Shown here piece by piece: positions 4,605-37,777 of a DNA stretch of 37,777 nucleotides. Under the pieces are notes generated by a model. It did not search any database, was not told where the DNA came from, and was given only the letters and a program-made list of their open reading frames with translations. Origin of the DNA: Jimgerdemannia flammicorona (Eukaryota); the NCBI GenBank assembly GCA_003990765.1, contig RBNJ01000179.1, forward strand, positions 1 through 37,777, given 5' to 3'. Position 1 is the first letter of the stretch. Each line of letters opens with the position of its first letter. Made by a program: the position numbers and the translations under genes.

Positions 4605-4761
4605 TCAGCTCCTACTAAAGGATGGTCTATACTTAGACTATCCTTTATTTTTTATTTCAGTAGATATAGACAGATATAAGAATAGGTAGAGATTGCAGAA
4701 AACTGAGAATAAGAGTCTGGAGAAACTAGTCAATTCTTTGATTTATAGTTTGGAGGATTTT

Positions 4762-4810
4762 ATAACTTGAGACTATAAAAAAAAAAAAAAAAAAAAAAAT
4801 AACTTGAGAC
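4762..4810 (+). mobile_element. Solo poly(A) insertion with target-site duplication
   Basis: ataacttgagac at 4762-4773 and 4799-4810 flanks tat + A-run; only one copy of this motif at the homologous A3 site (~29478-29490). Confidence 0.75.
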
Positions 4811-6640: not shown

Positions 6641-7096
6641 TGTTATATAGTGGTCGCTGAGTTCTTCAAATATGCCAGATTCTCTACAAGATATATCTCT
6701 TAGACTAACTCAAGTTTGTTATAAGCAAGTTCTTATTGGAGTGCCTTTCCAAGGTCTTATAGTTCTCAAACTTCTTATCTTTAAACTGTCTTGTAATATT
6801 TTTAGATTGCTTGCAAGGAAGTATATGTATTGCACTAAGTAGACTGACTTTATTTCAGTGAAAATAAGAGGGGTATTTATACAAAATATAAATTCAATGG
6901 TTGCTAAGATATAAAGCTAAATATAAATTCCAATAACTAAGAGCCCATTCAGTTCAAAATAACATTATTTTGGGTTATATGGCATGAGAATTATTTCTGG
7001 ATCAAAATAATTCTAATGCTTAAAAGATCATGCTATTACTGAAAACTAATAATAAAATTATGGTGTTATTTTGAGTCAGCCACAACCTTGCTGCCA

Positions 7097-8424: not shown

Positions 8425-8469
8425 AGGTATATCACATTGATTGTACTTTTTTATTAAATCACATGTATT

Positions 8470-9662: not shown

Positions 9663-9997
9663 GATTTTGCCTGATATTGTGTTCTAATGATGATGTTGTA
9701 CCAAACATGTTATAATTTTGATATGATATTCAAAAATAATGTTATTTTGAAATGAAGGCATTATTTGCTAAACTAATACAACTGAACAGGCCCTAAAATA
9801 AAATGCCAGAACAGAAAAAACTGCTAAGTTCCAGAGTCAGCACTGACAGTTTTACAGGTTCAGGATGCTGGTATAATTTCAGTAGTATAGGTTCAGGATG
9901 CTGGTATAATTTCAGTAGTACAGGAAAATGGTACTGGAATAATTCAGTATAATATCAGAATGCTGGTGGTGGAATAATTCAGTATCACTAAAGGACT

Positions 9998-10753
9998 TTA
10001 GAGCAGAATGTTCAAGACTATAAAGGCTTCATCCTTATCAGAGATCAGAATGTCTTCAAAGGAGATGAGGTCTACAAATTAATCATTGTCATATAGGTCA
10101 CATGTTTTGTATATATCATATGTCTCACATATGTTACATAGGATGATGTCATTGCCAATGACATTATCACATTTAGTGGTGGCAGGAACAAGAAGGTCTC
10201 AGGCTCTCCAGTCTATGAGGTTCTCTTCCACAAAATAGGGGACAAATGTGAGATCTTGGAGAGGTCTAACCTGGAAGCTTGGGCCTTGGAATATTGAGAT
10301 CAATCCTTACAGAAATGGGTCTGGGTTGTTCTGAAGGATGGGATGCCAGAAGTCTTCTACTTCATCACTGTCAAGGGTGATAGTGGACTGGACTTCTGTA
10401 GCCACCCTGACTTCTAGTGTATTGATATAGCAGGCTGACAGGTCACTGAAATCTGAGACTCTAACATACTCTAAGTTGGGGATCAACCATGGTATATGCC
10501 TGAAGATCTGATGGATCTTCTTGGCTATTTTTGTTTCATATATATCCATGAGAGTGGCATCTTGTAGCTCTTGAGTGCTGGCCTGTGGGAACTCCTGGCA
10601 GAGGAGGTTTACTATTTCATACTCCTGCTACATTTGGAGGTATTTGATAGCAATGGTGATCCTTGTTTCCATTTCATAGTAATAGAGAATATAATGATAA
10701 GAGTCACCAGTACTCAGGTTGATACTAGGAGTCCTTCTTAAGTGGGTCCTCAT
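9998..10753 (-). pseudogene. LTR-encoded accessory ORF of element B (3' LTR copy), 251 aa, unknown function
   Basis: Same length and frame as 17178-17933; internal stops are sense codons in the other copy. Confidence 0.72.
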
Positions 10754-11082
10754 GGCTTTTCTGATGTCTTAGAATATCCTTTCTTCAACTGAGATGCCTT
10801 GGTGGTTCCTTGATCTTGAGATTTGATGAGCAGCAGATATTTCATTTGTGGTAAGTCTTTGAGCTATTTTGGGATTAGTGGGTTTTGTTGGTTATTGCTA
10901 CTGCAGTTCTTTGATCCTTCTTTTATATTTCTCAAGATACCTATACTATGGTCACAATGACTTACAGTTGGTCATTATTGCTCATCTTATATACTGTATG
11001 ATCTTCTTATACTCTGATCTGGTGGCTTGTAAGAAACGGCTGTCTCCTGTACTGATGTCATCATTCTGGGGTCACTGTTACA

Positions 11083-11095
11083 TCTTCCTCCTAAA
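11083..11095 (-). promoter_or_regulatory. Polypurine tract of element B
   Basis: Minus strand TTTAGGAGGAAGA directly before the TGT of the 3' LTR. Confidence 0.8.
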
Positions 11096-11449
11096 TAAGG
11101 ATCTTCTTAAATGTTCTTATTCATTAGTCTAGTCCTGAAAAATTTGCTAATCCCATAACCTCTGACAAAGGATCAAAAAGTGGTGTTTATGGGCTGGCAT
11201 CTTCTCTTTATATTTTGGCATGATGGTGAAGGGTCACTCCCTTCATATAGAGCAAGGATCTAATTCTGATCTTGACCAATTAGTTGATAGTTTGAACTCC
11301 TCTGACTTAGAAAGTCTCATGGATGAGTAGTTGTTGGTGCTGTATCTCTTAGAGAATGGTCCAGACAGATAGCCTACTGATCATGAGACATACTGTTATG
11401 ATTCACAGACTAGAACCTCATGGGCAGTCACCATGTTTTGCTTCTCTTG

Positions 11450-12520
11450 TATAGATTCATGGTACTTCTTGAGTCTATTCCTATATACCATGATAAGCAG
11501 TATGGTCTCTGAGATTTTTCTAAGTCAGAAGGTAGTTCTCTTGATATCTTGCATGTAGAAGGGTCCTTTCCATTTGGGCTCCAGTTTTCACAATCATGAG
11601 ACTTCTACCATATTTGATACAGTAGGACCTTTTCTCCAATTTGGATGGGTTCTAGGGTCTTGTGATTCTTTTCTGCATTTTTCCTTATCAGTACTTGTAA
11701 CTTGATGATGTAATCTTCAGCCTTCTTCCTGATTTGGTATAGTCTCTGGATTTCTGCATCAATCTGTCTTCAAGTTAGGTCTAGATTTGTAGCTGAGGTT
11801 CCATCAGAATCTTCTACTCTGAAGAGCAGTTCTCTTGGGGTAAAGTGTGTGCTCTGTAACTGTATGTCTCATAGGACAGAGAGGGCAGTTGGGAGGTAGT
11901 TATCCCAATTCTCATATGTCTCTGAGATCTTTGCCAGGATGTTCTTGAGGGTCTTATTGGTTCTCTCTGTCTGTCCATTTCATTGAGGGTGGTACACAAT
12001 AGTCTTGATGTGCTGAATCTTGTATTTCTGATACATATATTATCTCATAAAATCCATTGACAAATTCTGTACTGCAGTCTGTTGTGATTTGCTTTGGTGT
12101 CTTGTAGCAGCAGATGATTTCTTGGTGCAGGAAGTCGGCTATAGAGAGGGTATTGGCTTCTTGTAGTGCTCCTGCTTCTATCTATTTCATAAAGAGGTCT
12201 ATAATAATAATAATATAGCAGTTTCCTGATAGTGTTACTGGTAGTGGCTCAATGATATCCATTGTGATGTGGTGGAAGAAGATAGACTCAATTCTTGATG
12301 ACCTGAGTACCTGGTCTTGCTGATCTTATTTCTGTTTTTGGCACTTGTCATACTCTTTGACTAATTGGTGCAGGTCTTCTTTCATTTTGGGCCACTATAT
12401 AGTTCTTCTTGCCTTATTATATGTATTGATTCCTTCTAGGTATCCTTGCTTGTGTACTTCCTTCATTACTTGATACTTCTTGTATTAGGGTATTACTAGC
12501 TTTCCTCCTTTTCTGAGTAT
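11450..12520 (-). pseudogene. int: Element B integrase (HHCC remnant, DDE core, GPY/F-like tail)
   Basis: WPKMKED, MDIIEPLP, ITTDCSTEF, TLNEMDR.R (YHPQ.NG..ER) region, EPKWKGPF. Confidence 0.82.
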
Positions 12521-12671
12521 AGTGTTGTCTAGTTCAAACTGTTCCCAAGTCTGGTTGATGATGGTAATTGTCCAGGGTTTGAGGTGGTTGGGCATCTTCT
12601 GCTGCCCAAGGTAGCTGATTAATCCATAGTATAACTTCTTATTCATGTTGAATAGTCTTGATGGGGGTGTT

Positions 12672-13920
12672 TCAGGGTTTCCTTAAGAGTGCATCAGCAT
12701 TGGTATTGGTTCTTCCTAAGTGGTACTTAATAGTACAATCATACTCTTGCCACCTGTAGATCCATCTGGTATATATTCCTTTGGGGTTCAGAGTGTGGAA
12801 TAGCCAAGCAAGAGTGGAATGGTCTGTTTGAATAGTGAAGTATAGTAGTAGAACTTGTCTACTGTCCAAACTACTGCTAAGCATTTAAGCTTATATGACT
12901 TATAGTTTTGTTCTGCTCTATGAGTACCTTGGCTTGCATAGGAGATGACATATTCATATCCATCTTTCTTCTGAGCTAGGACTGCTCTAAGTTCTATAGT
13001 ACTTGCATCTGTCTGCAGGATGAATTCTAGGTTCCAATCTGGTCTTCTAAGAATAGGTGCTTGGGTCAATCTGGTCTTGAGTTCATTGAAGGTTTCTTGA
13101 TATTTCTTGATATATTCAAATTTGGTTTCCTTCTTCAGTAGCTCATAGATAGGTGCTGCAATATTGGAGTATCCTTTGATGAATCTTCTGTAGTAGCTGG
13201 TCAGTCTAAGGAAGACATGGACTTCTGTAGTTGTTCTGGGTCTCAGGTAGACTGCAACAGCCTCAATCTTATAGAGTCTGTATGGATTCTGGGCTGGTTG
13301 ATGAGGTATCCTAGGTAGGCAATTTCTTGAGCTGTAAACTTGTATTTCTTGGGCTTGATGTAGAGGCCATACTCCTTGAGCTTTATGAGGGCTAGCTGTA
13401 TGTGGTTGATATATTCCTGTGTAGTGTTGCTGAAGGTGATTATATCATCAATATAGATAAAGAGCTATTTTCCAATCTTGTTGCTGAAGACTCTGTTCAT
13501 TATTTGCTGAAAACTTGCTTGGGCATTACACATTCCAAATAGCATTTGCAGGTAAATATAGGTGGTATCAGGTGTGATAAAGACTGATTTCTCACTGGCA
13601 TCTTGAGTAAGACCAATCTGATGGAAGCTTGAGAATAGATCCAAGATGGTGTAGTATTTGGCTTTACTTCCAAGAGTGGTAAGGATTTCTTGAATATTAG
13701 GCAAGAGCTGCCTATCCTTCTTGGTGATGGCATTGAGCTTCCTGTAGTTAATGCAGAGACTTGGTGCAAACTCTTTAGGCTTGCTTCCTTTCTTTGGGGT
13801 GAGGATAATGGGTGAAGCCCAGGGACTGATAGTTTGCTTGATGATTCCAGCTTCTTCTATTTCCTTGAGTTCTGCTCACAGCCATTCTCTGTAGGCAGGT
13901 GGTATAGGTCTGGCTTTCTG
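12672..13920 (-). pseudogene. pol: Element B reverse transcriptase and RNase H
   Basis: SPWASP, LCINYRKLN, LDLFSSFHQI, MLFGMCNAQASFQ, YIDD (~13445-13456), FILQTDAS, TDHSTL, NADALLR. Confidence 0.92.
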
Positions 13921-14141
13921 GTTGATAGGCTTTATATCACTAGTATCAACTTCATGATAGTACTTGGGTTCTTGATTGTGGATATCCCTGAAGTCTATAG
14001 CAAGTACTTCATTCTGGTACAGGATCTTGAGAAGTTGTTCTTCCAGGAGAACATTTTCTCCAATGGTATATGTGTGCTTATTCTGGTCCCTATCTTTCTT
14101 GTACTCAAGTTCAGTAATCTTGGTGGTGGCATAGACTCCTC

Positions 14142-14522
14142 TTCCAGTAGATCCAAAGTCTTGTTCTCCTCTCTTAGTCTTGATGAGTTCAATGGCTTCA
14201 GTGATCTTGGGCTTCTTGATTTTGTAGATCAGCATCTGGCCAATCCTGTTATGCTTCTTGACTTCAAATGGAATAGTGGGATTGTGATTCCTGACTATAA
14301 GGAAGATCTTACCAGTGTAATCAGGGTCAATTAGTCCTCCTTCAACTGAGATTTCACTTTTGGCCAGACTGCTCCTAGTCTTGATAATTCTGACATGGTT
14401 CTCTGGCAGCTTGACTCCAATTCCAGTGCCAAGTAGGGTGGTGGTCTGTAGTTCAAGGGTAGCATCTTAAATGCTGACAAGGTCCATTCCTATGGCTCCT
14501 CCAGTCTTGTATTCTGGGATCT
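14142..14522 (-). pseudogene. dut: dUTPase domain in element B pol
   Basis: AIGMDL, TRSSLA, GLIDPDYTG, RIGQM, RGEQDFGSTG: all five trimeric dUTPase motifs. Confidence 0.92.
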
Positions 14523-14879
14523 TGGCTTCAGGATGAAACTTCTTAACCTTGAGGTGATGTCTGATTCTTGTTCCTCCTCATTATCACTGTTAGCTTGAAG
14601 TTGTCAGCTTCTTCAGCTTTCCTTTTTGCTTCAGTGACTTCTTGCTCATGTTTCTGTTGGCAGATTTTCCTGACTTCGCTGATACAGGACCAGCAGTTAT
14701 TCAGGTGTTCAGAGCAGTATATCCTAGTACCATATGGGTATCTTCCTTGAGGAGCATTGCTATTAATGATCTTGTTGTACCACTGCTCATCTGTGAGCTT
14801 GGGTGTCTTGTTCTTATTCTTGTTCACTGAGTGCATGAAGACTTCTGTGTCCTCTTCATCTCCTTCCTCCATGTCTAGT

Positions 14880-15260
14880 AGAACTCCTTTGTAAATATTG
14901 ATAGAGACTCATACCTTTCTTCCTCTATAGTTGATCTATATTTTCTGAGCATTGAGATCAATGATGGCCTTGGCCTTGTAAAGCCATTAGTTGTCAATGA
15001 GGATATCATAGTTGGTGGTACTTGTAACAATTACATCTACTGGAATGGTAGCTCCTCCTATCTTGATGGAGACTTCTCAGATTTTGTCAAGGGGGGTAGC
15101 TTGTATACCATCTGCTGTAACATAGACCATCTTGGTGGACTCTTCAATGTCCCAGCCTAGATGATCAATTGTCTTCTTGCTCATGAGGTATCCTCTAGCA
15201 CTAGTATCAATGATGGCATCAAAGATACAATCTTTGATCTGACATGGGGTATAGGCTGAT
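14880..15260 (-). pseudogene. Element B aspartic protease
   Basis: AIIDTSA (DTG-like) and DILIDN (ILG-like). Confidence 0.78.
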
Positions 15261-15376
15261 GTCTTGTACTGGTCTTTGGATTCTTTACCTGAGTCTTCTG
15301 ATTCTTCCTGTATATTGTAAGCTTCTACAATCTTGTACTCTTGATTCTTGGCAGTAGTTGCAAGTCCTACTCTCAA

Positions 15377-16620
15377 CTACTGTCTTAAGGCAGAGACTTT
15401 GGTTAGCTGTCCAAAAGTAGCATTGACCTTCTTTACCTTAAGGTCATTGTAGATATCATAGTGATAGATCTTGGTCTTATGCAGCTTCTGTTCCTTCTTG
15501 CTTTTGCTTTCTCCTGAGACTGGAGTAGTGCCTTCGATGATTTGGTGGGCAGCTTTATCTAACTCCATGTCTTGATCAATCTCCTTGGTTTGGGTCTTGC
15601 TTTTGATAGTGACATCTGGGGTATTCTTTGGTCTTCTAACTGGCTTGCTGTTGCTCTTCTTGTCATAGGGCTTGGACTGGGTTCTGGTTTCTTTAGTAGC
15701 AGGGTAGAATTCAAGCTCCTTATAGTATTCATCATCATCAGTATCACCAATCTCCTCAATGACTACTGCATTGGTTTGTTCTCTGGTTCTGCTAGCATTA
15801 CTTGGTTGGGCTTTGTATCTTGTTTCAGTTATGTAGTTATTTGCAAAGTGGCCTTCTTCTCCACATCTGAAGTATGTGATATTGCATTCTTCTATAGCAG
15901 TGCACTGGTCTCCTGTTGGCACTTTGGACTTCTCTAACAATATCACTAAGGTGTTCAGTCATCTCAGCAAACTGCTTGGCAAGTTTCTCCACTGGGTCAG
16001 CTTAGGCTACTTTAGGGGTAGGTGGGGTTGGTTGTCTGTTTACAACTGTAGTGGGTATGATACTAGTTGGCTTTGATAGTTCCATCTTGATACCAGTTAT
16101 TTTCTCTATTGAGTGTTCAGCAGGGTGTCTGGTAGTCTAATATCTCTGTACAAAGACCACTTTCTGATCAAGGGTCAGTGTAGCTGAGGTAGACTGGATT
16201 GCTAGGGCAATTTCAGGGTGAACTCCTTTGAGGAAGGTTGAATCTGCTATTTGTTCCTTGAGGGTATCATTATAGTCAGCCAAGATAATCTGGTGGTAGA
16301 TTCAGGTATAGAATGAGTTGGGATCTTCACTGAGTCCCTGGCAGATAGTATTGAGTTGATCCTTGAGAGCTTCCTTGATCTCTTCAGTATAGTATGTTGT
16401 TCTGAGGAAGGTCTTCATGTTGGCAAGTTTGGCTACACCATTATCAGCAATAGTGACTACATTGAACTTGTCCCTGATAGGTCCTCTGAGGCTGACTGAT
16501 AGAAGGGCCAATTGTGTATCCACACCAAGAGCTCATATGGCAGTGAATTGTTCAAAGTCTTCAATAAAGGTCAGGATTGACTCTTCAGTAGTATATCTAT
16601 AGAATGTAGAGGGAGGCATT
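15377..16620 (-). pseudogene. gag: Element B Gag with CCHC knuckle
   Basis: (C>Y)FRCGEEGHFANN(C>Y); QGLSEDPNSFY capsid homology; in frame with PR through one TAG. Confidence 0.82.
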
Positions 16621-16721
16621 TCTATCTTATCTTGAATTCTTATAGGAGTGACTCTTGTAGTCAGAGTAGTTGTGGTGATTGTTTGTTTTTTAGCTTGAAA
16701 GTGAGGGATTCATCTTGAATC

Positions 16722-16739
16722 ACCAGCCAATGGACACCA
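16722..16739 (-). promoter_or_regulatory. Primer-binding site of element B (tRNA not identified)
   Basis: TGGTGTCCATTGGCTGGT begins 3 nt after the LTR end. Confidence 0.65.
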
Positions 16740-16742
16740 AGT

Positions 16743-18262
16743 TGTCACATAGTGGTCGCTGAGTCCTTCAAATATGCCAGATTCTCTTCAAGGTGTATCT
16801 CTTAGACTAACTTGAGTTTGTTATAAGTAAGTTCTTATTGGAGTACCTTCCCAAGGTCTTATAGTTCTCAAACTTCATATCTTTAAACTGTCTTGTTATC
16901 TTTTTAGATTGCTTGCAAGGAAGTGTGTATATTATACTGAGTAGACTGACTTTATTTCAGAGGAAATAAGAGGGGTATTTATACAAAATATAAATTCAAT
17001 GATTGCTAAGATATAAAGCTAAATATAAATTTCAACAACTAAAATAAAATACCAGGACAGGAAAAACTGCTAAGTTCCAGGGTTGGCACTGATGGTTTTA
17101 TACAGATTCAGGATGCTGGTATAATTTTGGTGATACAGGAAAATGGTGCTGGAATAATTCCATATCACCATAGGACTTTAGAGCAGAATGTTCAAGACTA
17201 TAGTGGCTTCATCCTTATCAGAAGTCAGGATGTCTTTGAAGGAGATGAGGTCCACAAATTTGTCATTATCACATAGGTTGCATGTTTCATATATATTGCA
17301 TATCTTGTGTATGTCACACAGGATGACATAATTGCTGATGATGTCATCACATTCAGTAGTGGTGGAAACAAGGAGGTCTGGGGCTCTCCAGTCTATGAGG
17401 TTCTCTTCCACAAAATAGGGGACAAATGTGGGATCTTGGGGAGGTCTAACCTGGATGCCTAGGCCTTGGAATACTGAGATCAATCCTTGTAAGAATTGGT
17501 CTGGGTTGTCCTGAAGGATGTAATATCAGAAGTCTTCTACTTTATCACTGTTGAGGGTGATAGTGGACTGGGCTTCTGTAGCCATCCTGGCTTCTATTAC
17601 ATTGATATGGTAGGCTGACAGGTCTCTGAAATCTGAGACTCTAACATACTCCAAGTTGGGGATCAACCATGATACATGCCTGAAGATCTGATAGATCTTC
17701 TTTGCTGTCCTTGTTTCGCATATATCCACAGGAGTGGCATTTTGTAGCTCTTGCGTACTGGTCTGTGGAAACTCCCAGTAGAGGAAGTTTTTTATTTCAT
17801 ACTCCTGCCATATTTAGAGGTATTCAGTAGTAATAGTAATCCTTTTTTCCATTTCATAGTATTAGAGGATATAATGAAAAGGGTCACCAGTACCCAGATT
17901 GACACTAGGAGTCCTTCTTGAGTGAGTTCTCATGGCTCTTCTGATGTCTTAGAACATCCTTTCTTCAACTGAGGTGCCTTAGTGATTCCTTAACCTTGAG
18001 ATTTGGCAAGCAGCAGGTATTTTATTTGTGGTAAGTCTTTGAGCTATTTTGGAATTGGTGGGTCTTATTGGTTACTGCTACTGTAGTTCCTTGATCCTTC
18101 TTTTATATTTCTCAAGATATCCATACTATGGTCACAATGACTCACAGTTAGTCATCATTGCTCATCTTGTATACCATATGATCTTCTTGTACTCTGATCT
18201 GGTGACTTGCAAGGAAAGGCTATCTCCTATGCTGATGTCATCATTCTGGGGTCACCATTACA
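16743..18262 (-). repeat. 5' LTR of element B (1520 bp)
   Basis: tgtcaca...ttaca; direct repeat of the left LTR. Confidence 0.94.
17178..17933 (-). pseudogene. LTR-encoded accessory ORF of element B (5' LTR copy)
   Basis: Track ORFs 17178..17483 and 17526..17729 share a frame that extends to ATG 17933 (possibly 18158). Confidence 0.72.
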
Positions 18263-21200
18263 ATATACTATCTAGTAGTAGTAGATTAGTGAGCCATAGA
18301 CTGAGTTTATCATTCTCTGGAAGGTTGGGAGTATATTGTAGATTCAAAACAATATCCAGAGATATTCAAATATTTTTTCTAGGAAAAAAAAAACCGTTTT
18401 CTGAATGTTCTTAAGATCTTGTAAAATCCGGTAAAGAGATCTATACTGCAGAAGTATCTGATATCTTATAATTGATCTAGGAGATCATTGATTCTAGGCA
18501 AGGAGTAGGTATCATTTCCTGTAACTGAATTGAGCTTTCTGTAATCTACACAGAGTCTCTATCTTTCTTTCTTAGATATAATGAGTATAGAGCTGGTCAG
18601 AGGCTAGTAGAGAGTCAAATAACTCTATTATCTGAGAGTTTTGGATTGTATTCTTTTTTAAATATCTTTAGATAATAGGGTATTCTATAAGGCTTTGTCA
18701 GATGGGTGTAGTGTTTTCTGTATTTATACTATAATAGTATAATAGATTATATAGTAGGTTGTTATAGTCTATAGTAAAGATATCCTGGTATTTTTGAAGG
18801 AGTTTTACTAGTTATTATTACTACTGAGATATCAGTTCTTCTCTAATATTAGTAGAAGGCTTTAATTTCCCCTGGATTACAGAAAGGCCTTTCTTTTCTT
18901 CTGAGATCTTCTGCTATTTCTCAATATATTTAGTTTATAAACTTCCCTATCTATTCAATTAAGATAGAGCATCAGATAGTTTATAATAGTTTCTTTCAAT
19001 TGAATGAGGCTTTCCCAGCTTTAGTTAATTGCTCAAGAGTATATAGAGTTTATCTTATTAGAAGATATATATTCTTCTATATCAAGATTCTTGATATACT
19101 TATTAAGTTTAAAGTAGAAATTTCAGAAATCAAGTTGTGTAAAGATTTCAAAGATGGTCTGCTCTCCTAGTTTTAAAATGAGATTCTTGTATAGCTTAAC
19201 TAGTTGGCAGTATATTTATAAGCATTCTTTTTGAAGTAGTAACCTAGAGGAGATGTATTTCTTTTTTATCTATGCTTCTAAATTCTATAGTTTATCTTAT
19301 ATCTTAAGTCAGTTTAAGGATCTCTTATAGTTGAGGAGTCTTAACCATTATGAAGATTACTTATATAATTTTTTGTCTTTTATAGATTTAATTCTACTCT
19401 ATTCTACTATTGTTAAAGATAACCTTGATTTTGTCTATATATCCAGAGTCTATTATTTCTCCTTTTTAGTTATTCCTTATCTAGTAAGTCCAGATCTTGA
19501 GGTCAATTAGATATAAGTTCTCTTGGATTGCTATATAGCTTATTCTATACTAAGCACTATTATTCTTCCAAGCTTATATAAGACTATAAAGATTATATCT
19601 CATATCTTTCTAATGAGCTTTTGTTAGATGTTTAGTTTTGAAATTTAACAAGATATACTGGACAATATCCTTACTGAGTTTAGATTATTCTTAGACTGAG
19701 ATTTCAGTATATATGTATGAGCTCTCAGGCTCTAAAATTGAGGTGTAGCTATCTGGCTCCAGAGAGAGATCTCAGAGATAATTGATTTCTCTTTTTTCCA
19801 TAGGATCTAGGGCTTCTATAAAGTTGATGATATCTTTTACCCATCTTTAATAGATTATATATCTGATAAGAGCCAGAATGTCATCTTCTAGATTATAGAT
19901 CTTGAAAGCCTCCTTTGTTAGTTTCTTGGCATAGCTTCTTCAGATAAGCTCTGTTATCTCCTTTCTTTAGTATATATAGTAATATCTTAACTAAGGTAAA
20001 TCTTCTAATGTAGATAGTTTCCAGAGTTTGAGTGTTTTTCATAATTACAATATTCTATTATTGAAAAATACAGTTCTTAGTTTTTAACTTCTTACTGTCT
20101 TTAAAATTAGTATTCATTCTTATTATAAGTTGAAGAAAGGGTAGCTAGGGGCCATACTTCTTTTTGAGTGAAGTGGTCCTATCTATTGACTTGTCTTTTC
20201 AACATAATAGTAATTTCTTAGTAGATAGTTATCTGTACAATTGTGATTAGAGATCCTGGTCTGCAGTATCTCTATCTTTCTTATTAGTTCAATAAGTATC
20301 ATTAATAGCAGTAGTCTTGGGGAGAGTGGAAGACCATTTGATGCTAATATCTTTCTAGCCAAAAGGGCCTTTTTTGATATATTTCTTATCTTTAATCAAT
20401 GGCAACTATTCTTAGTCCTTCTTCAGTATTCCATAGGTTATTATCTTTCAGCAGTATCTAGTGAAAGTTATCTCAGAAGATGGGTTTAGAAGTTCCTTCT
20501 GTTTAAGAACTTCTAGTTCAAGGATTTCTTTATCAGATAATTCTTAATCTCAGATTGCTTATACTTTTATAACTTCAGTTGTAGATATCTTCAGAGAGTA
20601 GTTATATTTCTTCTTTTCTTTTCTATACTATGAGCAGACTATATTAGTTAAATTTTTTATTCCAATAATCTTAGAGGAATGTTCAGGACACTTGTATCTT
20701 TTGAGACAGATAGAGTATGTTTTAGCTTATCCTGCAATGGCTCTGATAATAATAGAGATAGTATCTTTGACCCATATATTATCTTCTGGCCTATCACATA
20801 CTAGATTGATTTATAAATTGAGTCTGGGGTCATTTTCATATTCAGATTCTTCTTTTTTTCTATAGTAGATTCTTTACTACTGATATACTCTTTCTAGATA
20901 GTGACCTTCTTCTTCTTTGATTGCTTATAGCTAATTATCTTAATTCTGTACTTCTTTTCTCTATTATCAAATTTGAGTACCTATTGGTTGATATCAATAA
21001 CTGTATTCATTTTCTTCATCTAGTTGGTACTAAGAATTATATCATAAATAACAGCTTCAATGACAATAGCTTTTATAATAGAGAACTTAATATGTTTAAA
21101 AGAGATAGTGATGTTTTATACTTCTCCATGAGGTTGAGTTTATGCTCTATCTGCTACTATGATACTGAGGTTAGATAGTCTATCAATATATCTCTAAAGA

Positions 21201-22042: not shown

Positions 22043-23162
22043 TGTAATGTGCCTGCTCAATGAAGACAAATTACAAGGATGGGGGTTGGTGTAGTTCGGC
22101 TTGAGCCCATAGTTATTTTATCAAAAAGCAACAAAATGTTCTAAGATTCCTGAGGTCCTTGGTGTTTAGTAGTATAATAGTCAAAGCTGGATATCTATGA
22201 GTAATTTGTATGTCAATTTTCTAATTGGGATGGTTCTCTAAGTATAGCAGCAGTTTGTGTGTGAATGGGTTTCCCTCTTAGGTCAACTGGGAATTGGTAG
22301 AATTTCATATTTAAATTCCTATCTTACTACTCCAAACCCAATCCTCCCATCCCTTCATGAATAATAAATTGGATGAATATATGTTTATATATTGGGCAAA
22401 TGCATGCATGAGGAAAGTTCTGTCTCAAATGCATTATATCAGTCAGTTCGAAGAACCCAATATAAAAAGGTATACAAGAGAGAGGTGGGAGTGAAAACCA
22501 TATGGTAGTGATTAAGTGAGATGGAAAGTGGTCAGGATGTTAGCAAACAATAATTACATAATTGCTAATTATAAATGCATATTGCCTAATCAAGTAATAA
22601 ACATCTTTAATATACTATCCCTTCAGGATCCTTTCATTAAATCTCCATCTTACTACTCTGAACCTAATCCTCCTATCCCTTTATGAATAATAAATTGGAT
22701 GAATATATATTTGTATATTGGGCAAATACATATATGAGGAAAGTTCTGTCTTGAATGTGTTGCATCAGTCAGTTCAAAGAACCCGGCTCAAAGAAATTAG
22801 ATGAGCTTACATCATGGTCATAGGGTCTACATAGAGCATAGTTATTAGGATCTGTATTATATTAATGCAATTTGTCCATGGTCTAAGGCCCTGCCCAAGT
22901 AAGGAGAGATAGCCTGCCCATGGTCTTCAAATACTATACTACCTGCAATCTTGAGACTCAGCATTAGAGCATATGTCCTATCTGGGTCTTTGTGATCTTA
23001 GGATTCTGCATCATAGGACATACCAAACCATGGTCATGGAAACTTCACTGCCTCACAATCTTGAGCCTCAGCACAAAAGTAGGTCCTATGTGGGTGCTCA
23101 TAGTGAAGAGTTCTACATAGATGGCTGATAAAGATTGGATATAATAGTGGTGATTTGTATGA

Positions 23163-24050
23163 TCATGTAGCATGTCTGACCATATTATGAGAGGTCAGAA
23201 TTATCATCAAGGAGAAGATGCAAGAGATGGGCATCTGAATGTATAGTTGATAGGCATTACTATACCACCACCCAGGAATTTGAATCTCATAGTCCAAGAA
23301 CTCAGCCTTGGTGGTATCAGAAGTGACCCCAATGTAAAAGCTGTGTCTGGCAAAGGCAGATGCTTCCAACCCCCCAGCTATAAAAAGGGGCCATAGGCCC
23401 AAAAGGAGCCATGCTCAAGATAATAGAGCATTGTTGGCCTGATAGAAAAGTGGCAAGTCAGGAGGGGCCAGAAAGGAGTAGAAGAGTGCTTGGAGAAGGA
23501 GGATAGCACATGGGGTACTGACTAGTGTGTGAGTGATATAGAGAGTAGTGCCCTTGCAGAAAGAGTCTGTCTTAGAGGAGGTAATGGTCAGTATAATATA
23601 GGCAGGGTTATATACCAAAGGTGTAAACTGTATGGTGGAATGGAAGAGATTGATGGTAGAGTCAAATGCCATTGGTCCTTATGTGAATTCACCAGAATAA
23701 AGGAATCTGAAATATGCAAGCATAATGGCCGCTGTGATTGTGGTGGTTTTCAGTAGAAAGGTCCAAGAGGAGAAGAATTCGTAATAAGATAGAGATAGAG
23801 ATGGAGAGGCATAGTTATGAGATTGACTCCCCAATCTAATGCTTGATGCTCCAAAGGATCCATAGAAGCTGAAGCAAGTCTTCTAAAGAGTCTAGAAGGC
23901 CGGCATCAATGTAGAGTGAGTGAATAGTGAATAGGTATGATTTGATGATGGCCAGGCATAGGTATCATAGGGTCAGAGCACATACTCACTAAATCAGATA
24001 TTATTTGAAAGCTGGTAGAATGGAACTATCCTGGTTGCAGAGGTTGTTGA
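23163..24050 (-). pseudogene. Tyrosine recombinase of the Ngaro element
   Basis: SKTDSFCKG, HSFYIG (HSFRIG), GWWYSNAYQLYI (GRWxSxAYxxYI). Confidence 0.85.
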
Positions 24051-24229
24051 TGGTGCAGAATTCAAGGAAACCACATTGACTGGTCAAAGATAATTGGTGT
24101 ATAGAGCCTGCTAGACCAAACCATAGGAAGAATACGGTGAGGAGCAGAAGACCATGGGGTAGGAAGAGAGCTCAGCATTGTTGGGGTCTGGTCAGCATCA
24201 GGGGTGAGGGAGTAAAACCATAGAAGGTT

Positions 24230-25700
24230 GAGAAAGGACAATGCATCAGCAATAGCATTAAGATGAGAGGGAATAAATGATACTCATAATTGGAAAGAGT
24301 ATGAGGCCCCCAGAAAGAGAAGTTGGTGAAGGAGTTCAAGGAGTTTTAGGTTATTAGAGATGCAGGAATTGATGCAGAACATTGTGGTCTGATTGTCAAT
24401 CAGGACATAGATGCAGTGGAACTGCCAATGGGGGCCCCACATAGCTATAATGATGACAATGGTATATAATTCCTTAAATTAGATATATTTGAGAAGGAGA
24501 TCCACAGGCCAGAGGATAGAGAACTATGCTCTATCAAAAAATACTACAAAGTCATGGGTGCCACTGATATCAGTCCAGAATCAATTATCAGTGACCTCTT
24601 CCCATGGGGTAATAATCATGACTCTATTCCACAGTGTGAGGAATTGTAACCACTAATGTAAGTCTGCAAAAAAATTGGCAGTCAAGTTGATATGGTGATC
24701 AGAGTAGGAAACAGAGGTCGAAATATCAATAAAACAGCAAAGGAAGAGTTGGCCCTCTGGAATGACCTGACAAGCAAAAGAAAGGGACCCAATGAGTGAA
24801 AGGATATCCCATTTGGTGGCAGTTGCCCAAATAGAGGTTGACCAGGTGATGAGGTTGGTTATTGTTATGAGAGTAGATTGGATCTTGCCCTCAGAAAGAT
24901 GTGCCTCCATGGTAGTTGTATCAATCTCAAAGCCCATAAACAGAAGACAGGTAGAGGGGCCATCTACTTTTTTGTCCTGCACAGAAAATCCAATAGCATG
25001 GCAGATAGAAAGGAGAAGATAGAGTGGTGTTGTAGCTTGAGATAGGTGGCAGGCCCCAAAAGTATCATTGATATACCAAATGATATCATTCAGGCCATAG
25101 TATTTGAAAAGCCATTTGAGTATTTTACCAAAGACATTAAAGAGGAATGGAGATGAATGTAGTCTGAAGGGAAGGAATCAGTCAAAATAGAAAAGACTCT
25201 GCCAGTGGAAGCCTAGCAGTTCCCAATCCTCTGGATGCACCAGAATATATCAGAAGGCATTTGCCAAGTTGACTTTGAACAGTAGGGTATCTCTGCTGAG
25301 ACATTGTACAATATCCAATACTTGATCAAAGGTAGCATACTTGAGAGTAAAATCATCAGGCAATATCCTGGCATTTACCAATGTACTATGAGACCAAGAG
25401 AGATGATAAATGTGGTGCTGATTGGTGGATCCTTTCTTTGCCACTATACTCAATAGAGATGCCCAGAAATTCAGAAATGGAGGGTAGAAGAAGGGGCCCA
25501 CAATATGCCTGACTGCAACTTTTGTTATAATGTCATCAGAGATCACTTGAGGAAAAGCATGGGCCAAAGGTAGATTATACCATGACTGAGGGTGGTATGG
25601 GCCTACAAAGTCTATATAGACACTATAGAATAGAGCAAGTAAGATAGTAGATAAGAGATGGTAGTTGGGGAAGTCTTGAAATATAACTGCCCAAACATTG
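24230..25700 (-). pseudogene. DIRS-type RT and RNase H
   Basis: KVNLANAF, WYINDTF (YxDD remnant ~25063-25078), KKVDGPST...FMGFEIDT, IGSLSF, WTDISG, NAIADALS. Confidence 0.88.
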
Positions 25701-25949
25701 GCTCACAAGGGAACTATAGAAAGAGGGAGAATATCTAAAATATGTTTGGCAGAGGTCAGGGAAGTAGAGAGAGGAAAGGTAAAGATGGTGTTTGGAGGTT
25801 GAGGGGGTGTCATTGTAGAAGGGATGGAAGGGAGGACTATTATCAGAGCTTTCGATATACCCATAGAATCCTATAATGTACATTGGAATATAGCATATAC
25901 CTTTCTACAACAAGAATACTAATGATTGTAGAGACAACCCATGTGAGTG

Positions 25950-27255
25950 CAGCCTTAAATAAGGGGATCAATGGTACCAGCTTGGTTAATGTGGTTATAG
26001 GTATAGCATATATCAGAAAGAGGATATAGTTGTAAAGTCAAAGCCTGGTTGTGCCATGCAGGTTTTCTCACAGAATGAGAAGTCAACAGGGTGGACCCAG
26101 GGGTTTGGTGGTGGAAGTATGGGCATAGTAGTAGATATAAAGATATTAGTTCACTATCCTGAGTAGCCCAGGTCATACACAATGTACAAGAGAGAGGGGT
26201 GGCAATTCATTGAGCATGGAATTCAATGTGGTAGTCAAGAAGCACCTCTCATTGATTATCAGTGTTCAAATGGATAAGATTAGTTATATAGCAGAAGAAT
26301 GCAGTGGGATCCATGAGGCCAGAGATTGCATTATAGAGAATACTGAAATATAGTAGTAAAGGACCAAGTAGAGAAAGGAGATTGGGAAAGTTATGGACCA
26401 TGGTAACCTCCTGAGAAGGATTGATCTCCTCAATAAAGTGGGGCTCATTTGGTGTGAGCACCAAGAGAGTCTAGGTAATGAGTTTTCCGAGATCATGTGG
26501 ATGGAAGGTGTTGTAGATGATAGCAGAGACCATTGTAGGATTCATGTTGGAGTATTTGGCAAGGTTGAGACTATCATAGACAGATGAAAAAAGCATACAC
26601 CTGCAGACATCACACTGGGAGGCAGTGTACCTAGAGGCATCGCATCTGGAGGCATTGCTCCTGGAGGCATCATACCTGGAAGCATAACACCTGGAGGCAT
26701 TACACCTGGAGGCATTGCCCCTGGGAGCATTACCCCTGGAGGCATTACTCCTGGGGGCATTACTCCTGGAGGTATTGCCCCTGAAGGCACCATATCTGAC
26801 TGCATTGAGGTGGGTATTGGGAATGACCAGTTAGAGCCTGCTGTATAAGGAAAATAACCCGATGCTGAAAATGGAGGTGGTATGTAGGAATAGCCCATAA
26901 AAGGGGTATCAATAAGTGAGGGTTGGATGTCAGAAAGGCCCAGAGAAGCTGCTGAAAGTGGGAAGGCAGCTGGTGGTAGCGAAGGCCAAAAAATAGCTGT
27001 TATAGGTAAAGAGCACTGGGGGCATAACTCTGGTGTCTGAGGTACAAAAATATCTGAGATGGGGATATCTGAAACTAGAACTGGTGTTGTAAGGGTGCTG
27101 AGAACAGAAACTGATGCAGAATGGGAAATTGGCACTGAGGCAGCTGATGTGGTACTAGAGGGAGTGGGGTCAGTGAGAAAATCTGGGTCAGAGACCAGGT
27201 CAAGGGTATAATCCAAGATAGATGGGACCCAGGCTTTTTTAAGATAGTGATGCAA
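25950..27255 (-). pseudogene. Gag-like ORF1 of the Ngaro element, Pro-rich
   Basis: Position upstream of RT; ORF 26542..27255 plus downstream fragments. Confidence 0.55.
26617..26792 (-). repeat. 15-bp tandem repeat encoding ~11 (M/I)PPG(V/A) units
   Basis: cctggaggcat(t/a)nnn repeats. Confidence 0.9.
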
Positions 27256-28906
27256 GGAGGTGATTATCTGGTCTTACTTGGCAATATGGGCATCTTGATC
27301 AGATGTGATGAATGGAGGTATGGAATCTATGTTGGAAGTGCCAGTAGCCAATATGCCTGCAATGGGTTCAGGCATGGGGCAGTAGTCATGAAGTTGGTGA
27401 AGCACTAGCAGAGCAGTGTTATGTATCACCAGTAGTTGAGGTATAGGAAGTGATAGCTGCCAGTATAGCATTGGCATCTTGGGAAAGAGGACATATATGG
27501 GAGCCAGTAGTGTGGTGTCCAGGGAATTGGTCTCCCAATGGCAGATCAGACAGGAGTTATGAGGGAAAGTCATTGGATTGTATATATATATGAAGGTGAA
27601 GTTCATATTGTTGTTGGTTTTATTTTTACTGTGATGATATAAATATAAACAATATAGTGAAAACCATATAGTAGTGATTAAGCAGGATGGGAAGTGGTCA
27701 GAATGTTGGCAAACAATAATTGCATAATTGCTAATTATAAATGTATATTTCCTAATCAAGTAATATATATCTTTAATGTACTATCCCTTCAGGATCCCTT
27801 CAGTAGTGTGATGATCTCTGTGTGTGACAGTCTGGCAATTTAGTGGTTCTCCTTCTTGAGTGATGAGCAATCTCTATGTAGCACAATGATCTCCAAAAGT
27901 GATAAATAGCTTGATTTGGGTATGGGTTCACTGGAAATAGATGGTGGTATGGATTCTTCTGAATTAGGTTTTACTGGGAATTATGCTGGCAGTGGATTCT
28001 TCTATACTGGGCTCACTGGGAACAAATGAATAACTCAGATGGTATAGATAACTCGGGTAACTTAGATAACTCAGATGTTGCAGATTCTTCTTAACCAGCA
28101 GCTCTTCTGGGAATAATACTCAGATTCATGGCAAGTTATATTAAAGACTGGCTTTATTTATATGGGGTTATGTCATAGACTGGCTCCACTGCAAAGTTGT
28201 GTCAAGAGACTGACTTATGGCAAGAATAGGTGGACTCTCTGAGAATACAGATAACTTGGAAACAGTGGTGAAGTTCTTCCTTGAACTTTGGTGGCAAACT
28301 CGGATTCTTCAGGCTTATCTGGAAAGTGAACCAAAATATAGTGGCTTATTTCTTAAGTGGCAGATTTCTCAAAAGGTGGTGAAGTTCTTCCTTGAACTTA
28401 GTGGCAAACTTCAGGCTTATCTGACAAGCAAACCAAGGCTTTGTATCAGAAAGTGGACTAGAGTGGGAAAGGAGCAAAGCTCACAATCTCCTAGTAGTGG
28501 CTGTAGAGTAGGCATTTCTCCTAAGTATTGCAATCCTTCCTGGATTAGGTGGCTTTTGGCAGGCATATCTCTTGAAGTATAGTAGGCAGACTTGTCTTTT
28601 GCTTTGTGTTTTGGAACTGAGGTTTATTCACTCTTATCTCTGGGGTATTTTATACATTGTGGTTACTTTCTGGTTACTATCTGGATAATTATTGATTTAC
28701 TATTTCTGGTAATGTTTGGGTATATCCTTAAGACATGAGTGTGTCCACAGGACATAGGTGTATCTGCCAGACACAGGTGTGTCCTCTGGACACAGATAAA
28801 TAACCCTGATTCAGTATCCTAGCTAATTATAAGTGTGATATATATGAGTAACTATGCTATGCTGGGTTCACATTATCTGGCTATATTATGCTATTTGCTC
28901 ATCACA

Positions 28907-28950
28907 TCAGCCCCCACTGAAAGATAGTCTGTCCCAGACTGTTCTTCAGT
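28907..28950 (-). promoter_or_regulatory. PPT-like tract (AGTGGGGGCTGA) and adjacent inverted repeat of A3
   Basis: Abuts the 3' LTR; homologue at 4605-4647. Confidence 0.65.
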
Positions 28951-28957
28951 TATCATT

Positions 28958-29461
28958 CTAATAAGCATAAGCAGCTTCTGCATCTATATCTGTTCCATCA
29001 TCTTTATTGTCTGTATAAAGGTCACTCCATTCTAAAGGCTCCTCTTCTTCTTTAGAAAATAGGATCTCAACTTGGTGGATAATACTAAGGTAGGTGGGTA
29101 GGGTCATCTTTTAGAGATCATTCAGAGAGAACTAGGCCTGGATTAAAGCTGAAGGGTTTCATTTGTAGATTGTATATAATCTTTCTTCAGCAGTAGTATT
29201 CCTTCTGTTCAGGTCAGTAGTATTGCAGACATAAGCCAGGTCTGGGAGGGGGAGATTCTGCAATTGTTCTCCAATTGCATAGTATGTTTACAGCTGGTGG
29301 ATCTGGAGTAATCTCTCAGCCAGAGTGAGGTTTTCTTGATGAACCTGGATTCTCTGAAGGTATGTTCTATTGAGTTCTTGGAACTGTGGCAGGGGAACTG
29401 ATAGGGCTTGAAGAGAACTGAGGACAAGGGTCTGGAGATGGTTGTCAAATCTCTGGTTCAT
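28958..29461 (-). pseudogene. Accessory ORF between integrase and PPT in family A, 167 aa, unknown function
   Basis: ATG 29461 to TAG 28958 without frameshift, 4 internal stops; 5' end MNQR.D..LQTL.LS.LQ.L conserved in A2 (~4685-4746). Confidence 0.65.
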
Positions 29462-29479
29462 GGTGTGGAGAAAGATATA

Positions 29480-30450
29480 TCTTGAGACAATTGATATATA
29501 CTGGTGTCCTCAGGGTTCATCTATCCATACTTCATAAATAGATGCTGGTTCCTCTGATATTGTACACAAGATAATGTCCTTCTCATTTGGGCTCCAATTT
29601 GGTGGCAAAGTTTGTTTCAATCATACTTCTCCAAACTATTACTTGATCTCCAATCTTGATCTTCTGGTCCTTCTGTTTCTGGTCATAGTGCTTCTTTTGT
29701 CTTTAGTAATCTGAACTTGGGCCTGATTATATAACTGTTCTGTCTTCTTGAGGAGATCTCTGAGGTTCTCATGGTCAGCAGTTCTGGTCCTCTTGGTAAA
29801 CATTATTTCAAATGGCGGAGGCAGCAGGAGTATTCCAAATTTCCCATAGGATCTCAGGTAAGCAAAGATCCCAGTTGATAGGATTGACTCAGGTAAGTTC
29901 CCTCTTAATGGTCTGGTTCATTCTTTCCATCATGCCATTGGTCTGAGGATAGTATAATGTGGTCTGTTTGAGGTAGATCTTGTGAATTTAGACATAACTT
30001 GTAATTGTATTGTTGATGAATTCTATGCCTTAGTTAGCAATAAGTTCGTCTGAGGGTCCATATCTGTAAGTCTATAGAGAAGGCCTACAATGGTTAAGGC
30101 ATCTGCAATTTCTATTGGGAAAGCCTTGGACCACTTTGTTAGATGTTCTACAAATACAAGGATATATTTGTTTCTTCTTGATATAACTGGTAGGGGTCCA
30201 TTACATCTACTCCCCATCTCTGAAAGATATTGTCTGGTGGTGTAATGGTGCTTGATAATTCTTCCTTCCTTGATATTTCTGACAGGTGTCATATTTCTTG
30301 AGTATATCTCAGACTTGTATTCTAAGATTAGGCCAATGCTGGTATATTGTTTACAACTTTTCTTCTATATTTGCTTGTCTTTGGTGGGCTTTCTGATATG
30401 AAGTCTTCTTGTATCTTGATGGTTGGAGGAGCTTACTTTAGAGTATAGTT
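29480..30450 (-). pseudogene. int: A3 integrase
   Basis: GPLPVISRRNKYILVFVEHLTKWSKAFPI, YYPQTNGMMERMNQTI, KLEPK.EGHY. Confidence 0.88.
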
Positions 30451-30539
30451 CCTCAGGACACCCATCTTCTAGTTTATTGAGGCTGATGGAAAAGTACATC
30501 AATATTGTTGTGAGCTTTCCCTACTTTATAGATGATGGT

Positions 30540-31760: not shown

Positions 31761-32295
31761 TATGATGGATTGTATGGCAGGTTGCCATAGTCTGTAGTGA
31801 AGATATCCTGATATTTGTTGAGGAGTTCTACTAGTTGTTGTCATTGCTGGGGTGTCAATTCTTCTCCAATGTTGGTGGAAGGCTTTACTGTCTCCTGGGT
31901 CGCAAAGGGGCCTTTCCTTTTTTCTGGGACCTTTTGCCATTTCCCATTAAGTTTAGTTCATAAACTTCTCTATAAGTTTGATTGAGAAAAGGCACCAGAT
32001 GTCCTATGATTGTTCCTTTTGACAAGATGATGGTTTCCCAACTTTGGTTGGTTGCTTGGGAATGCACTGGATTTATCTTGTCAGGGAAGGTGTGTCCTTC
32101 TATGTCCAGGTGTAGAATATCTTCATTGGGTTCAAAGAAGAGATTTCTGGAGTCGGGTGGTACAAAGATTTTGAAGATAGTTTGCTCTCCAGGTTCCAGG
32201 ATGAGATTCTTGTACAGTTTGACTAGTTGGCAGTATACTTGCTGGAGGATATTCCTCTTGAGGTGATTGACTTGAAGGAGATATACTTCCTTCTT

Positions 32296-36434: not shown

Positions 36435-36438
<4 letters not shown>

Positions 36439-36502
<64 letters not shown>

Positions 36503-37388
36503 TCACTTGGACTCTTCCTTTATTACATCCATCTATCCCATATAAGTACAGTGAACCCACCCCCTATCCAATCCCCCTAGGGGGGCCCCTCTCTCCTACT
36601 CCTTCTCGACGAAACACCACTCTATCAAATATAATTCCCACTCTCCCACCACTCTATTCACATATCCTTGTCACCAAACCTTGCCATCACCCCCCTGAAG
36701 GACCCCAACCTATCCACCATCCAGTCATCAGATCATCCAACAGCTCCTCCCACCTTAAAACCTTCTCCTGCGGGCTCACCTGCTGTTCCTCCTCAAACAC
36801 AAATAGCCAATGTCTCACCAATCCCATCCAAACTGCTAACACCCACCCAATAGTGAGCCAACTATCACCCACCCCCTCCACTAGCCAAGACCTCAAGTCC
36901 TCCCAGTGATCCCCCTCACCTGCCAGCCTGCACCACACCCAGTCTATCCCCTATCTCAACCCAAAAGTCCCACAAAACCTCACACTCTCTCAGCCAATAT
37001 TCTGGTGTCTGCACTAAACCCCCAGCTTGCCCTACATTGTAACACTCCTCACAATTGAAACAGCCACCATCCACCAGATACCTGGTGCAGAAATTCAGCA
37101 TGACATTCCTCCATAACATTCACCACCACACAACCCAGAACTTGGGGGGAAGCCACTGCCATACCTCAGCACTCCAAGACGAGATACCTGCCCAGTCCCA
37201 CTCCTCACTGATCTTGACTGCCTGCCACTGCTTGGCCAAAGATCCTGGCCAAGACCCTACTGACACTCCACTCTATCTCCAATATCAAAAGCAGCAAGTG
37301 GATCACCCCCCAGTAGCAGTCTATCCCATCTCCACATACTAGGTCCCCACAATACCTCCCCCTCATTGCCTTGCCAGTACAGACCAAT
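36439..37388 (-). mobile_element. 3' part of an L1/Tx1-like LINE with ~62-nt poly(A) tail
   Basis: Poly(T) 36439-36500 interrupts the A3 LTR at gctc|aatgg; minus-strand LWRNV...GCFNC...TPEYWLREC..LWDFW resembles the ORF2 C-terminal Cys-rich domain. Confidence 0.8.
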
Positions 37389-37777
37389 TCTGTGCGGGGT
37401 TGGCTGGAAGGTTGGAGCCTTTGCAGACGACATGGTGGTTGGTTTGGGAGTGATTGCGGATGTCGAGGAGCTCCAGAAGACAGTGGAGTGGTATGAGGAG
37501 AACTCCGGGGCGAAGCTGAATTGGCACAAGTGCGAAACAATGGTGCTGGGCAATGGCTTGGTGGGCGGAGAAGTTATTGGAACAATTGTCCCCGCCGGAG
37601 AGGCCGTGCGGTACTTGGGCATCTATCTGTCAGTCTATGGGTCGGTTTTGCCCAGGCTGTGGTGGGAGCAGAGGATTGGAAGTTGGGAGGAGGTCCTGCG
37701 GGGTTGGGGGGGTCGACACTTCTCTCTGGCAGGAAGGATCTCGATTTTGAACGTTTACTGGCTGCCGAAGCTGTGGT
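37387..37777 (+). pseudogene. L1/Tx1-like ORF2 RT fragment (runs off the right edge)
   Basis: WKVGAFADD, YEENSGAKLNWHKC, VRYLGIYL, SLAGRISILNVYWLPKLW; one frameshift in a G-run at ~37686. Confidence 0.9.

Follow-up and report, generated by a model that had tools for sequence, protein, structure and literature searches.

Evidence for a third gene after integrase in a lineage of dUTPase-carrying Ty3/Gypsy retrotransposons, and a possible stop-start route to its translation

The LTR elements of bdelloid rotifers carry varied ORF3s; several of their lineages also possess a dUTPase, and ORF3 types are common to unrelated elements (PMC5408684, in excerpt). In Botrytis, the element BcGypsy1 carries an additional ORF, brtn (10.1101/2021.04.13.439636, in excerpt), and the C. 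elegans Ty3/Gypsy element Cer1 encodes a small accessory protein, CERV (PMC10309623, in excerpt). The third ORF of the family A element analyzed here (ORF3) resembles the bdelloid ORF3s and brtn in being an extra sense-strand gene located after pol in an element of the Ty3/Gypsy type, and it resembles CERV as a small accessory protein of such an element. However, it has no sequence, Pfam or fold match to the described ORF3s, it is neither an enzyme nor env-like, and its start overlaps the stop of integrase. Set beside CERV, the ORF3 protein is acidic and contains no evident arginine-rich RNA-binding stretch; an export function for ORF3 would be pure speculation.

Termination-reinitiation is recognized by an overlapping AUGA or UAAUG combined with a structure upstream, and caliciviruses, influenza B and the retrotransposon SART1 are documented cases (PMC10275272, in excerpt). 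The hypovirus CHV1, with UAAUG, is a further case (PMC2699510, in excerpt). Family A shares with caliciviruses, influenza B and SART1 the AUGA stop-start overlap after a long ORF, and a stable hairpin is predicted just upstream of its RNase H/integrase junction. Unlike the known systems, it is an LTR retrotransposon, in which the proposed coupling would act at two successive junctions, one of them for integrase.

A second element of the same locus, family B, carries a gene that lies entirely within the LTR, 305 nt in from the LTR start. Retroviruses are known to have genes inside U3, namely sag of MMTV and, where it overlaps the 3′ LTR, part of HIV nef. The family B gene is like sag and nef in its location, but it has no sequence similarity to them and its host is probably a fungus.

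The retroelements of the window

The window, i.e. the whole stretch of 37,777 nucleotides that was analyzed, is a nest of decayed retroelements, almost all of them on the minus strand. Family A belongs to the Ty3/Gypsy elements and encodes protease, a dUTPase-like segment, reverse transcriptase (RT), RNase H and integrase. It is represented on the minus strand by copy 3 (36438→28909), copy 2, which is split by the insertion of family B (22012→18277 and 6640→4570) and is AT-rich (GC about 0.26–0.30), and copy 1 (1943→1). Family B, a second dUTPase-bearing Ty3/Gypsy element, occupies positions 6640–18277; its 1.5-kb LTRs lie on the minus strand at 18262→16742 and at 11082→9793 plus 6940→6640. 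The pol proteins of the two families are moderately related, with 29–50% identity in RT-RNase H and 26–41% in integrase. The beginning of the family A LTR, which starts with TGATGTG, covers 28265–28909 on the minus strand and is common to the next copy in the tandem array, as judged from a self-comparison and a reading of the boundary. For the Pfam scan of the window, 70 of the 107 stop-to-stop frames of at least 75 aa were used; most of the 37 omitted lay on the plus strand and overlapped genes of the minus strand.

The three family A copies apparently form a tandem array with common LTRs, in the order copy 3 internal region, LTR, copy 2 internal region, LTR, copy 1 internal region. This arrangement is based on the matches of 2750–3319 with 28265–28900 and of 1935–2168 with 22045–22305, the middle of the LTR being unaligned. 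One family A LTR is interrupted by a 5.3-kb stretch (22490–27805) flanked by direct repeats of 150 bp with 90% identity (22490–22639 and 27656–27805). GC and AT skew are strongly positive in this stretch, and its long minus-strand frames have no Pfam match. The LTR adjoining copy 2 contains a 1.25-kb insertion, within which we found an inverted fragment (3381–3703) made of the family A LTR end, the primer-binding site and the leader (matching 36438–36212 and 2038–1742). Furthermore, the 3′ LTR of family B harbors a fragment of a PIF/Harbinger-type DNA transposon (6940–9793), with the domains DDE_Tnp_4 at 8061–8300 (plus strand) and Myb_DNA-bind_3 at 9058–9381 (minus strand). A run of ~65 T, i.e. 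poly-A on the minus strand, cuts the 5′ LTR of copy 3 short about 20 nt ahead of the primer-binding site; beyond this run (36436–37776) the DNA is GC-richer and includes a fragment of a non-LTR reverse transcriptase (37264–37776, plus strand).

The protease and dUTPase frame of the lineage ends at a conserved stop preceded by ...KGKAPLRPRR[KQ] (positions 1310–1382 of the metagenome locus L003 and 31885–31946 of the window). RT follows in the −1 frame with an overlap of 72 nt and without a Met, and this overlap may be a classical −1 frameshift site. Transitions account for about 82% of the differences between family A copies. Over 3723 aligned bases of copies 2 and 3, changes from C to T or G to A in copy 2 numbered 631 vs 207 in the reverse direction (~threefold), and this base excess looks like RIP-like or methyl-cytosine hypermutation.

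ORF3 of family A and its predicted product

In copy 3, ORF3 runs on the minus strand from 29461 to 28946 (171 codons), between the end of integrase (~29458) and a polypurine-tract-like sequence CAGTGGGGGC at 28919–28910, which is located 26 nt past the ORF3 stop and is followed by the LTR from 28909. The equivalent tract of copy 2 lies at about 4610–4600. Directly upstream of ORF3, in another frame, is the GPY/F end of integrase (...CLKIY). The window copy is decayed, with in-frame stops at codons 58 (TAA), 101 (TGA), 110 (TAG), 117 (TAA) and 168, counted from the Met. The peptide given in the first-pass annotation, interrupted by four stops and ending in an acidic tail, matches exactly the minus-strand translation of 28958–29461. 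The fifth stop, TAG at 28960–28958, had been taken there as the terminal one. Intact relatives read W-[DN]-D-[DN] across this TAG and continue past it, so that the true end of ORF3 is the TGA at 28948–28946.

Copy 2 retains a remnant of ORF3 at 4570–4746 (minus strand). Of the gene, the start ATAAATCAAAGA and roughly the first 24 codons are kept; ~415 bp have been deleted internally, and the polypurine tract and the LTR start come next. Sensitive blastn aligned 4687–4776 with 29402–29491 and 4570–4656 with 28872–28957, and the gap between the matched blocks is 31 bp in copy 2 vs 445 bp in copy 3. The ORF3 copy at 28946–29461 was inactivated by C:G→T:A transitions, and its sister copy lost most of the gene through deletion. 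Over 29212–29457 the window copy also has an alternative frame with 82 open codons, and openness in the window alone would thus not select the ORF3 frame. Because the ORF3 frame is not unique in the window and the ORF3 of copy 2 is mostly deleted, evidence from outside was required.

A HMMER search of 1.84 billion representative proteins with the read-through translation yielded five matches (E 1e-38 to 1e-12), and a profile word search gave 12 relatives that are 47–66% identical to the window copy. Four of the 12 are full-length (P0009, 171 aa; P0010, 169 aa; P0011, 172 aa; P0013, 183 aa) and share the C-terminus ...DAE[DE]AY[AP][YH]W[DN]DD. The relatives have sense codons at all five stop positions of the window copy: Gln, Arg/Gln/Trp, Gln and Gln at the first four and Trp at the fifth. 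All relatives are gene calls on short ENA/JGI metagenome contigs (545–11765 bp), and since gene callers report open frames only, their openness is partly selected for. The earlier impression that the motif belongs to abundant hypothetical proteins of Glomeromycotina/Mucoromycota was not confirmed: all 12 are ENA/JGI metagenome proteins, and the family is rare in databases. Integrase alone has named Glomeromycotina relatives, the nearest being from Rhizophagus and Entrophospora (36–37% identity). A host among the Glomeromycotina or another early-diverging fungal group would be plausible.

Nei-Gojobori estimates for ORF3 gave pN values of 0.20–0.29 vs pS values of 0.58–0.79 (ratio 0.14–0.20 where computable), and for integrase a pN of 0.06 and a pS of 0.40; these values are rough because synonymous sites are near saturation. 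Scans for metagenome loci yielded three loci with alignment A6 and none with A5. In all three fetched loci (L001, L002 and L003) the gene lies directly after integrase. A conserved third gene of family A had been proposed between integrase and the polypurine tract, with homologues expected downstream of Gypsy integrases, and the 12 relatives, the purifying selection and the location in the three loci bear this out. By these comparisons, ORF3 is a genuine third gene of a lineage of dUTPase-carrying Ty3/Gypsy LTR retrotransposons. Pfam gave no family beyond noise for the window copies or for seven intact members (E 0.06–0.36, below cut-offs). Full-text searches of the literature outside subscription journals listed no description of the ORF3 family or of an ATGA-coupled integrase in LTR retrotransposons.

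L001 and L002 are 92–100% identical through the end of integrase (integrase pS 0.03) and 52–78% identical inside ORF3 (pS 0.58). The identity falls from about 40 nt into ORF3, and the ORF3 of L002 belongs to another subfamily. This drop indicates a recombination breakpoint where ORF3 begins.

The ORF3 protein has a pI of 4.5–4.7, and its last 35 residues include 15–17 acidic and no basic residues. Among the four full-length members, the 19-residue Kyte-Doolittle mean peaked at 0.94–1.36, which gives no membrane segment. With this hydropathy maximum and no match to a Pfam env family, an env-like ORF3 of the errantivirus or Athila type is ruled out, in agreement with the first-pass annotation. 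A chromodomain extension of integrase was also rejected, ORF3 being a separate, all-helical frame without a Pfam chromodomain. Four family A members gave nothing but noise in Pfam at E≤5, and the window copy gave nothing at E≤1.

AlphaFold, run with a 12-row alignment, produced a best model with a pLDDT of 70.3, the other four of the five models reaching 44–50. The best model contains helices at residues 2–18, 34–69, 72–82, 86–100, 103–107, 113–118 and 121–134, followed by a disordered tail. The product of ORF3 would be an acidic all-helical protein of ~170 aa with a disordered acidic-aromatic tail (...GIDAEDAYAYW[DN]DD). A homodimer prediction for residues 1–140, made without an alignment, scored 0.57 vs 0.00 for the best of three controls; the runs agreed in at least 94% of contacts, and the partner pLDDT was at least 79. 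The mark used for homodimers is reached by 21 of 30 solved one-chain pairs and by none of 23 solved single chains (17 of 29 and 0 of 30, respectively, in eukaryotes), and passing it supports binding but does not demonstrate it. The predicted interface comprises residues 30–84 and pairs the long helices in antiparallel orientation; the long helix is also the most conserved part of the family. According to these models, the ORF3 product probably forms an antiparallel dimer via this long conserved helix (residues ~34–70).

Searches with the predicted structure gave a best E of 0.9 with Foldseek against the PDB and a best Z of 5.1 with VIA-align against 48,161 chains, below the level commonly reached by helical models. 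VIA-align also matched a lentiviral Vpx chain, which was discarded, since Z 4.0 is noise at that level. The ESM Atlas returned no usable feature match, and structural matches there had a TM of at most 0.36. Our best guess at a role, although the odds are against it, is that of a dimeric adaptor without enzymatic activity that would work alongside integrase in the late steps, e.g. nuclear entry, tethering or target choice.

The gene inside the family B LTR and its relation to ORF3

The gene that the first reading had placed inside the family B LTR has three intact relatives of 215–271 aa (P0017–P0019), which are 63–69% identical and share the C-terminus ...DEAP..LNFLL. Two decayed copies are present on the minus strand of the window, one in the 5′ LTR (17178–17957, 260 codons) and one in the 3′ LTR (9998–10777, set 305 nt into the LTR beginning at 11082). 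The stops common to both LTR copies bracket about 256 codons. The strings YYEMEKRI and TAKKIYQIFRH...LIPNLEYVRVSDFRDLS, read earlier by hand, were located at 17861–17600 (minus strand), and the other family B LTR holds a second copy. The gene is contained wholly within the 1.5-kb LTR, about 685 nt past the end of integrase, which itself ends about 380 nt before the LTR. Its intact relatives indicate that this LTR frame is a real gene. At the end of the family B integrase (...NRLKKY), the sequence CCATGAATC includes an ATGA at 11457–11460 (minus strand) that opens a frame of 10 codons, MNLYKRSKTW. This ATGA may be a relic of an integrase-stop/ORF3-start junction of the family A type.

ORF3 of family A and the LTR gene of family B could represent one accessory family, located before the polypurine tract in A and in U3 in B, and moved or exchanged between the lineages. 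This reading is compatible with our main explanation of ORF3 and was scored separately; we judge the chances for and against it to be even. The pattern on which it had been founded, TA..[RK][LI]Y.I[YF], holds for A as it stands, but B matches only after a shift of one residue. Profile-profile comparison with hhalign aligned residues 31–103 of A with 23–96 of B over 70 columns, with scores of 25.7–27.2 and P values of 0.0078–0.0022. The best of these (27.2, P 0.0022) covers the dimer helix of A and the TA[KA][KR]I motif. However, the HH probability is just 5–13%, the profiles are thin (Neff about 1.7), and BLASTP of A vs B is non-significant (E 1.1–2.0). A second hhalign match paired A 6–22, DQRLQTLILSSFQSLPI, with B 153–168, DQFLQGLISVFQGPSI (score 18.1), but it is out of order with the first.

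When the columns of B were shuffled, a score of 27.2 was reached once in 543 trials and never in a further 471, none of which reached the sum of both matches either; the real score is flattered by these shuffles because column shuffling destroys helix periodicity and Q/L-rich runs. Reversed profiles scored 17.2 and 16.9. One hundred real frames of the window peaked at 16.6 with the A profile and at 19.5 with the B profile, although these decoys were single sequences and not profiles. Both proteins are acidic, helical and acidic-tailed, both elements carry a dUTPase and related pol genes, and exchange of ORF3 by recombination within family A adds to the case. Against a common origin are the different positions in the elements, before the polypurine tract in A vs 305 nt inside the LTR in B, and the fact that the hypothesis was drawn from these very motifs. 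The AlphaFold models (pLDDT 70.3 for A vs 34.2 for B) agree in helix order over the aligned part, but the B model is untrustworthy; at a pLDDT of 34 it is unusable, and the two structures could therefore not be superposed. A distant relationship between ORF3 and the family B LTR gene is suggestive but unproven, with an evenly balanced probability.

Stop-start junctions and the expression of ORF3

The start ATG of ORF3 overlaps a TGA stop in an ATGA at 29458–29461 (minus strand), where a 12-nt motif, ATGAMYCARAGR, is present in exact form. In the window copy, a deletion of 1 nt just upstream of the ATGA puts the integrase frame out of register with this TGA. The decayed integrase cistron of copy 3 (29462–30477, minus strand) itself begins at a mutated ATGA (ATAA, 30477–30474) that overlaps the RT-RNase H stop, and tblastn of the L003 integrase against the window gave 51% identity over 30407–29454. 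The integrase/ORF3 junction reads ATGA in L001, L002 and the window, and ATAA in L003, where ORF3 has no start ATG (ATA instead). The RT-RNase H/integrase junction reads ATGA in L003 and L001, and ATAA, a G→A variant, in L002 and the window. Both restart sites follow the pattern ATGA-MY-CAR-AGR, which encodes Met-Asn/Thr-Gln-Arg. In L001 the 12-mer restart motif occurs at the two junctions only, and the remnant of copy 2 also matches it.

The feature expected for termination-reinitiation, a stop/start overlap after a long ORF, is present at both junctions. A 16-bp hairpin ends 9 nt before the ATGA of the RNase H/integrase junction, with one compensatory pair in three sequences. At the integrase/ORF3 junction merely a 7-bp stem was predicted, with no covariation in four sequences. 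P0020 is a stand-alone integrase of 354 aa that starts at the junction Met and is 99% identical to the integrase of L003. In the lineage, integrase is a separate cistron in the −1 frame (L001 726–737, L003 2791–2802, window 30474–30477), and stand-alone integrase ORFs of 350–430 aa number in the hundreds in the protein collection, annotated Glomeromycotina proteins among them. A sequence TCACAMCAAT was noticed by eye about 33–35 nt before both ATGAs.

The identical overlap and the 12-nt restart motif at both junctions point to termination-reinitiation on the genomic RNA. Since integrase is indispensable and uses the same device, ORF3 is expected to be translated from the genomic RNA by coupling. 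RT-RNase H, integrase and ORF3 would be translated successively from the full-length RNA via termination-reinitiation, and the ORF3 protein would be made along with integrase, at lower amounts. We regard as likely the combined reading that the window holds a dead copy of a genuine ORF3, translated by coupling into an acidic helical dimeric product.

Retroviral accessory genes are translated from spliced subgenomic RNA, and ORF3 might be expressed in the same way, the ATGA overlap reflecting a compact arrangement only. Besides this general knowledge of retroviruses, the accessory protein CERV of Cer1 provides a precedent for a small gene located after pol in a Ty3/Gypsy element (PMC10309623, in excerpt). 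However, the essential integrase has the same ATGA in the same 12-nt context, which argues for a translational device shared by the two genes, and we consider splicing an unlikely source of ORF3.

Instead of reinitiation, −1 ribosomal frameshifting near the integrase end could conceivably fuse integrase with ORF3. In favor of such a fusion, the ORF3 frame stays open upstream, across the end of integrase, in L003 (52 codons) and in P0004 (about 40–41 residues), and in all three loci (L001, L002 and L003) it is the −1 frame relative to integrase. On the other hand, the upstream frame of L001 opens merely 20 codons before the Met, and both the Met and the ATGA overlap are conserved, which makes the fusion quite improbable. 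That ORF3 is a chance open frame in the spacer before the polypurine tract, picked up by gene callers, is hardly credible: the window copy has another frame with 82 open codons over the same stretch, most of ORF3 is missing from copy 2 and the relatives are all automatic calls, but full-length open frames persist at 50–66% identity with conserved start and end, pN is far below pS, and the Met context is conserved.

Coupled translation after integrase remains our preferred reading, and it can be extended, tentatively and with the odds against it, to a clade of Ty3/Gypsy elements with a dUTPase, whose hosts would probably be early-diverging soil fungi. In these elements RT-RNase H, integrase and a third protein would be expressed as successive cistrons by AUGA termination-reinitiation with a reused 12-nt context. 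The third protein would be a dimeric acidic factor without known relatives, passed between lineages by recombination and relocated into U3 in family B.

Outside plants and animals, the additional genes that LTR retrotransposons carry have been catalogued poorly, and a role is known for few of them. Two protein families are defined here, ORF3 of family A and the LTR gene of family B, each with intact relatives and neither with a Pfam or structural match. ORF3 represents a new family of accessory genes whose kind, the extra ORF of an LTR retrotransposon, is already known, and it has an unusual expression signal. The proposed AUGA coupling offers a concrete and testable route for this expression. 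If integrase and the accessory gene are indeed both AUGA-started, this LTR retrotransposon would follow a polycistronic strategy that is unusual for its kind. If the genes of families A and B are related, an accessory gene would have moved between the internal region and the LTR, and this relation would bear on how retroelements acquire and shuffle their genes.
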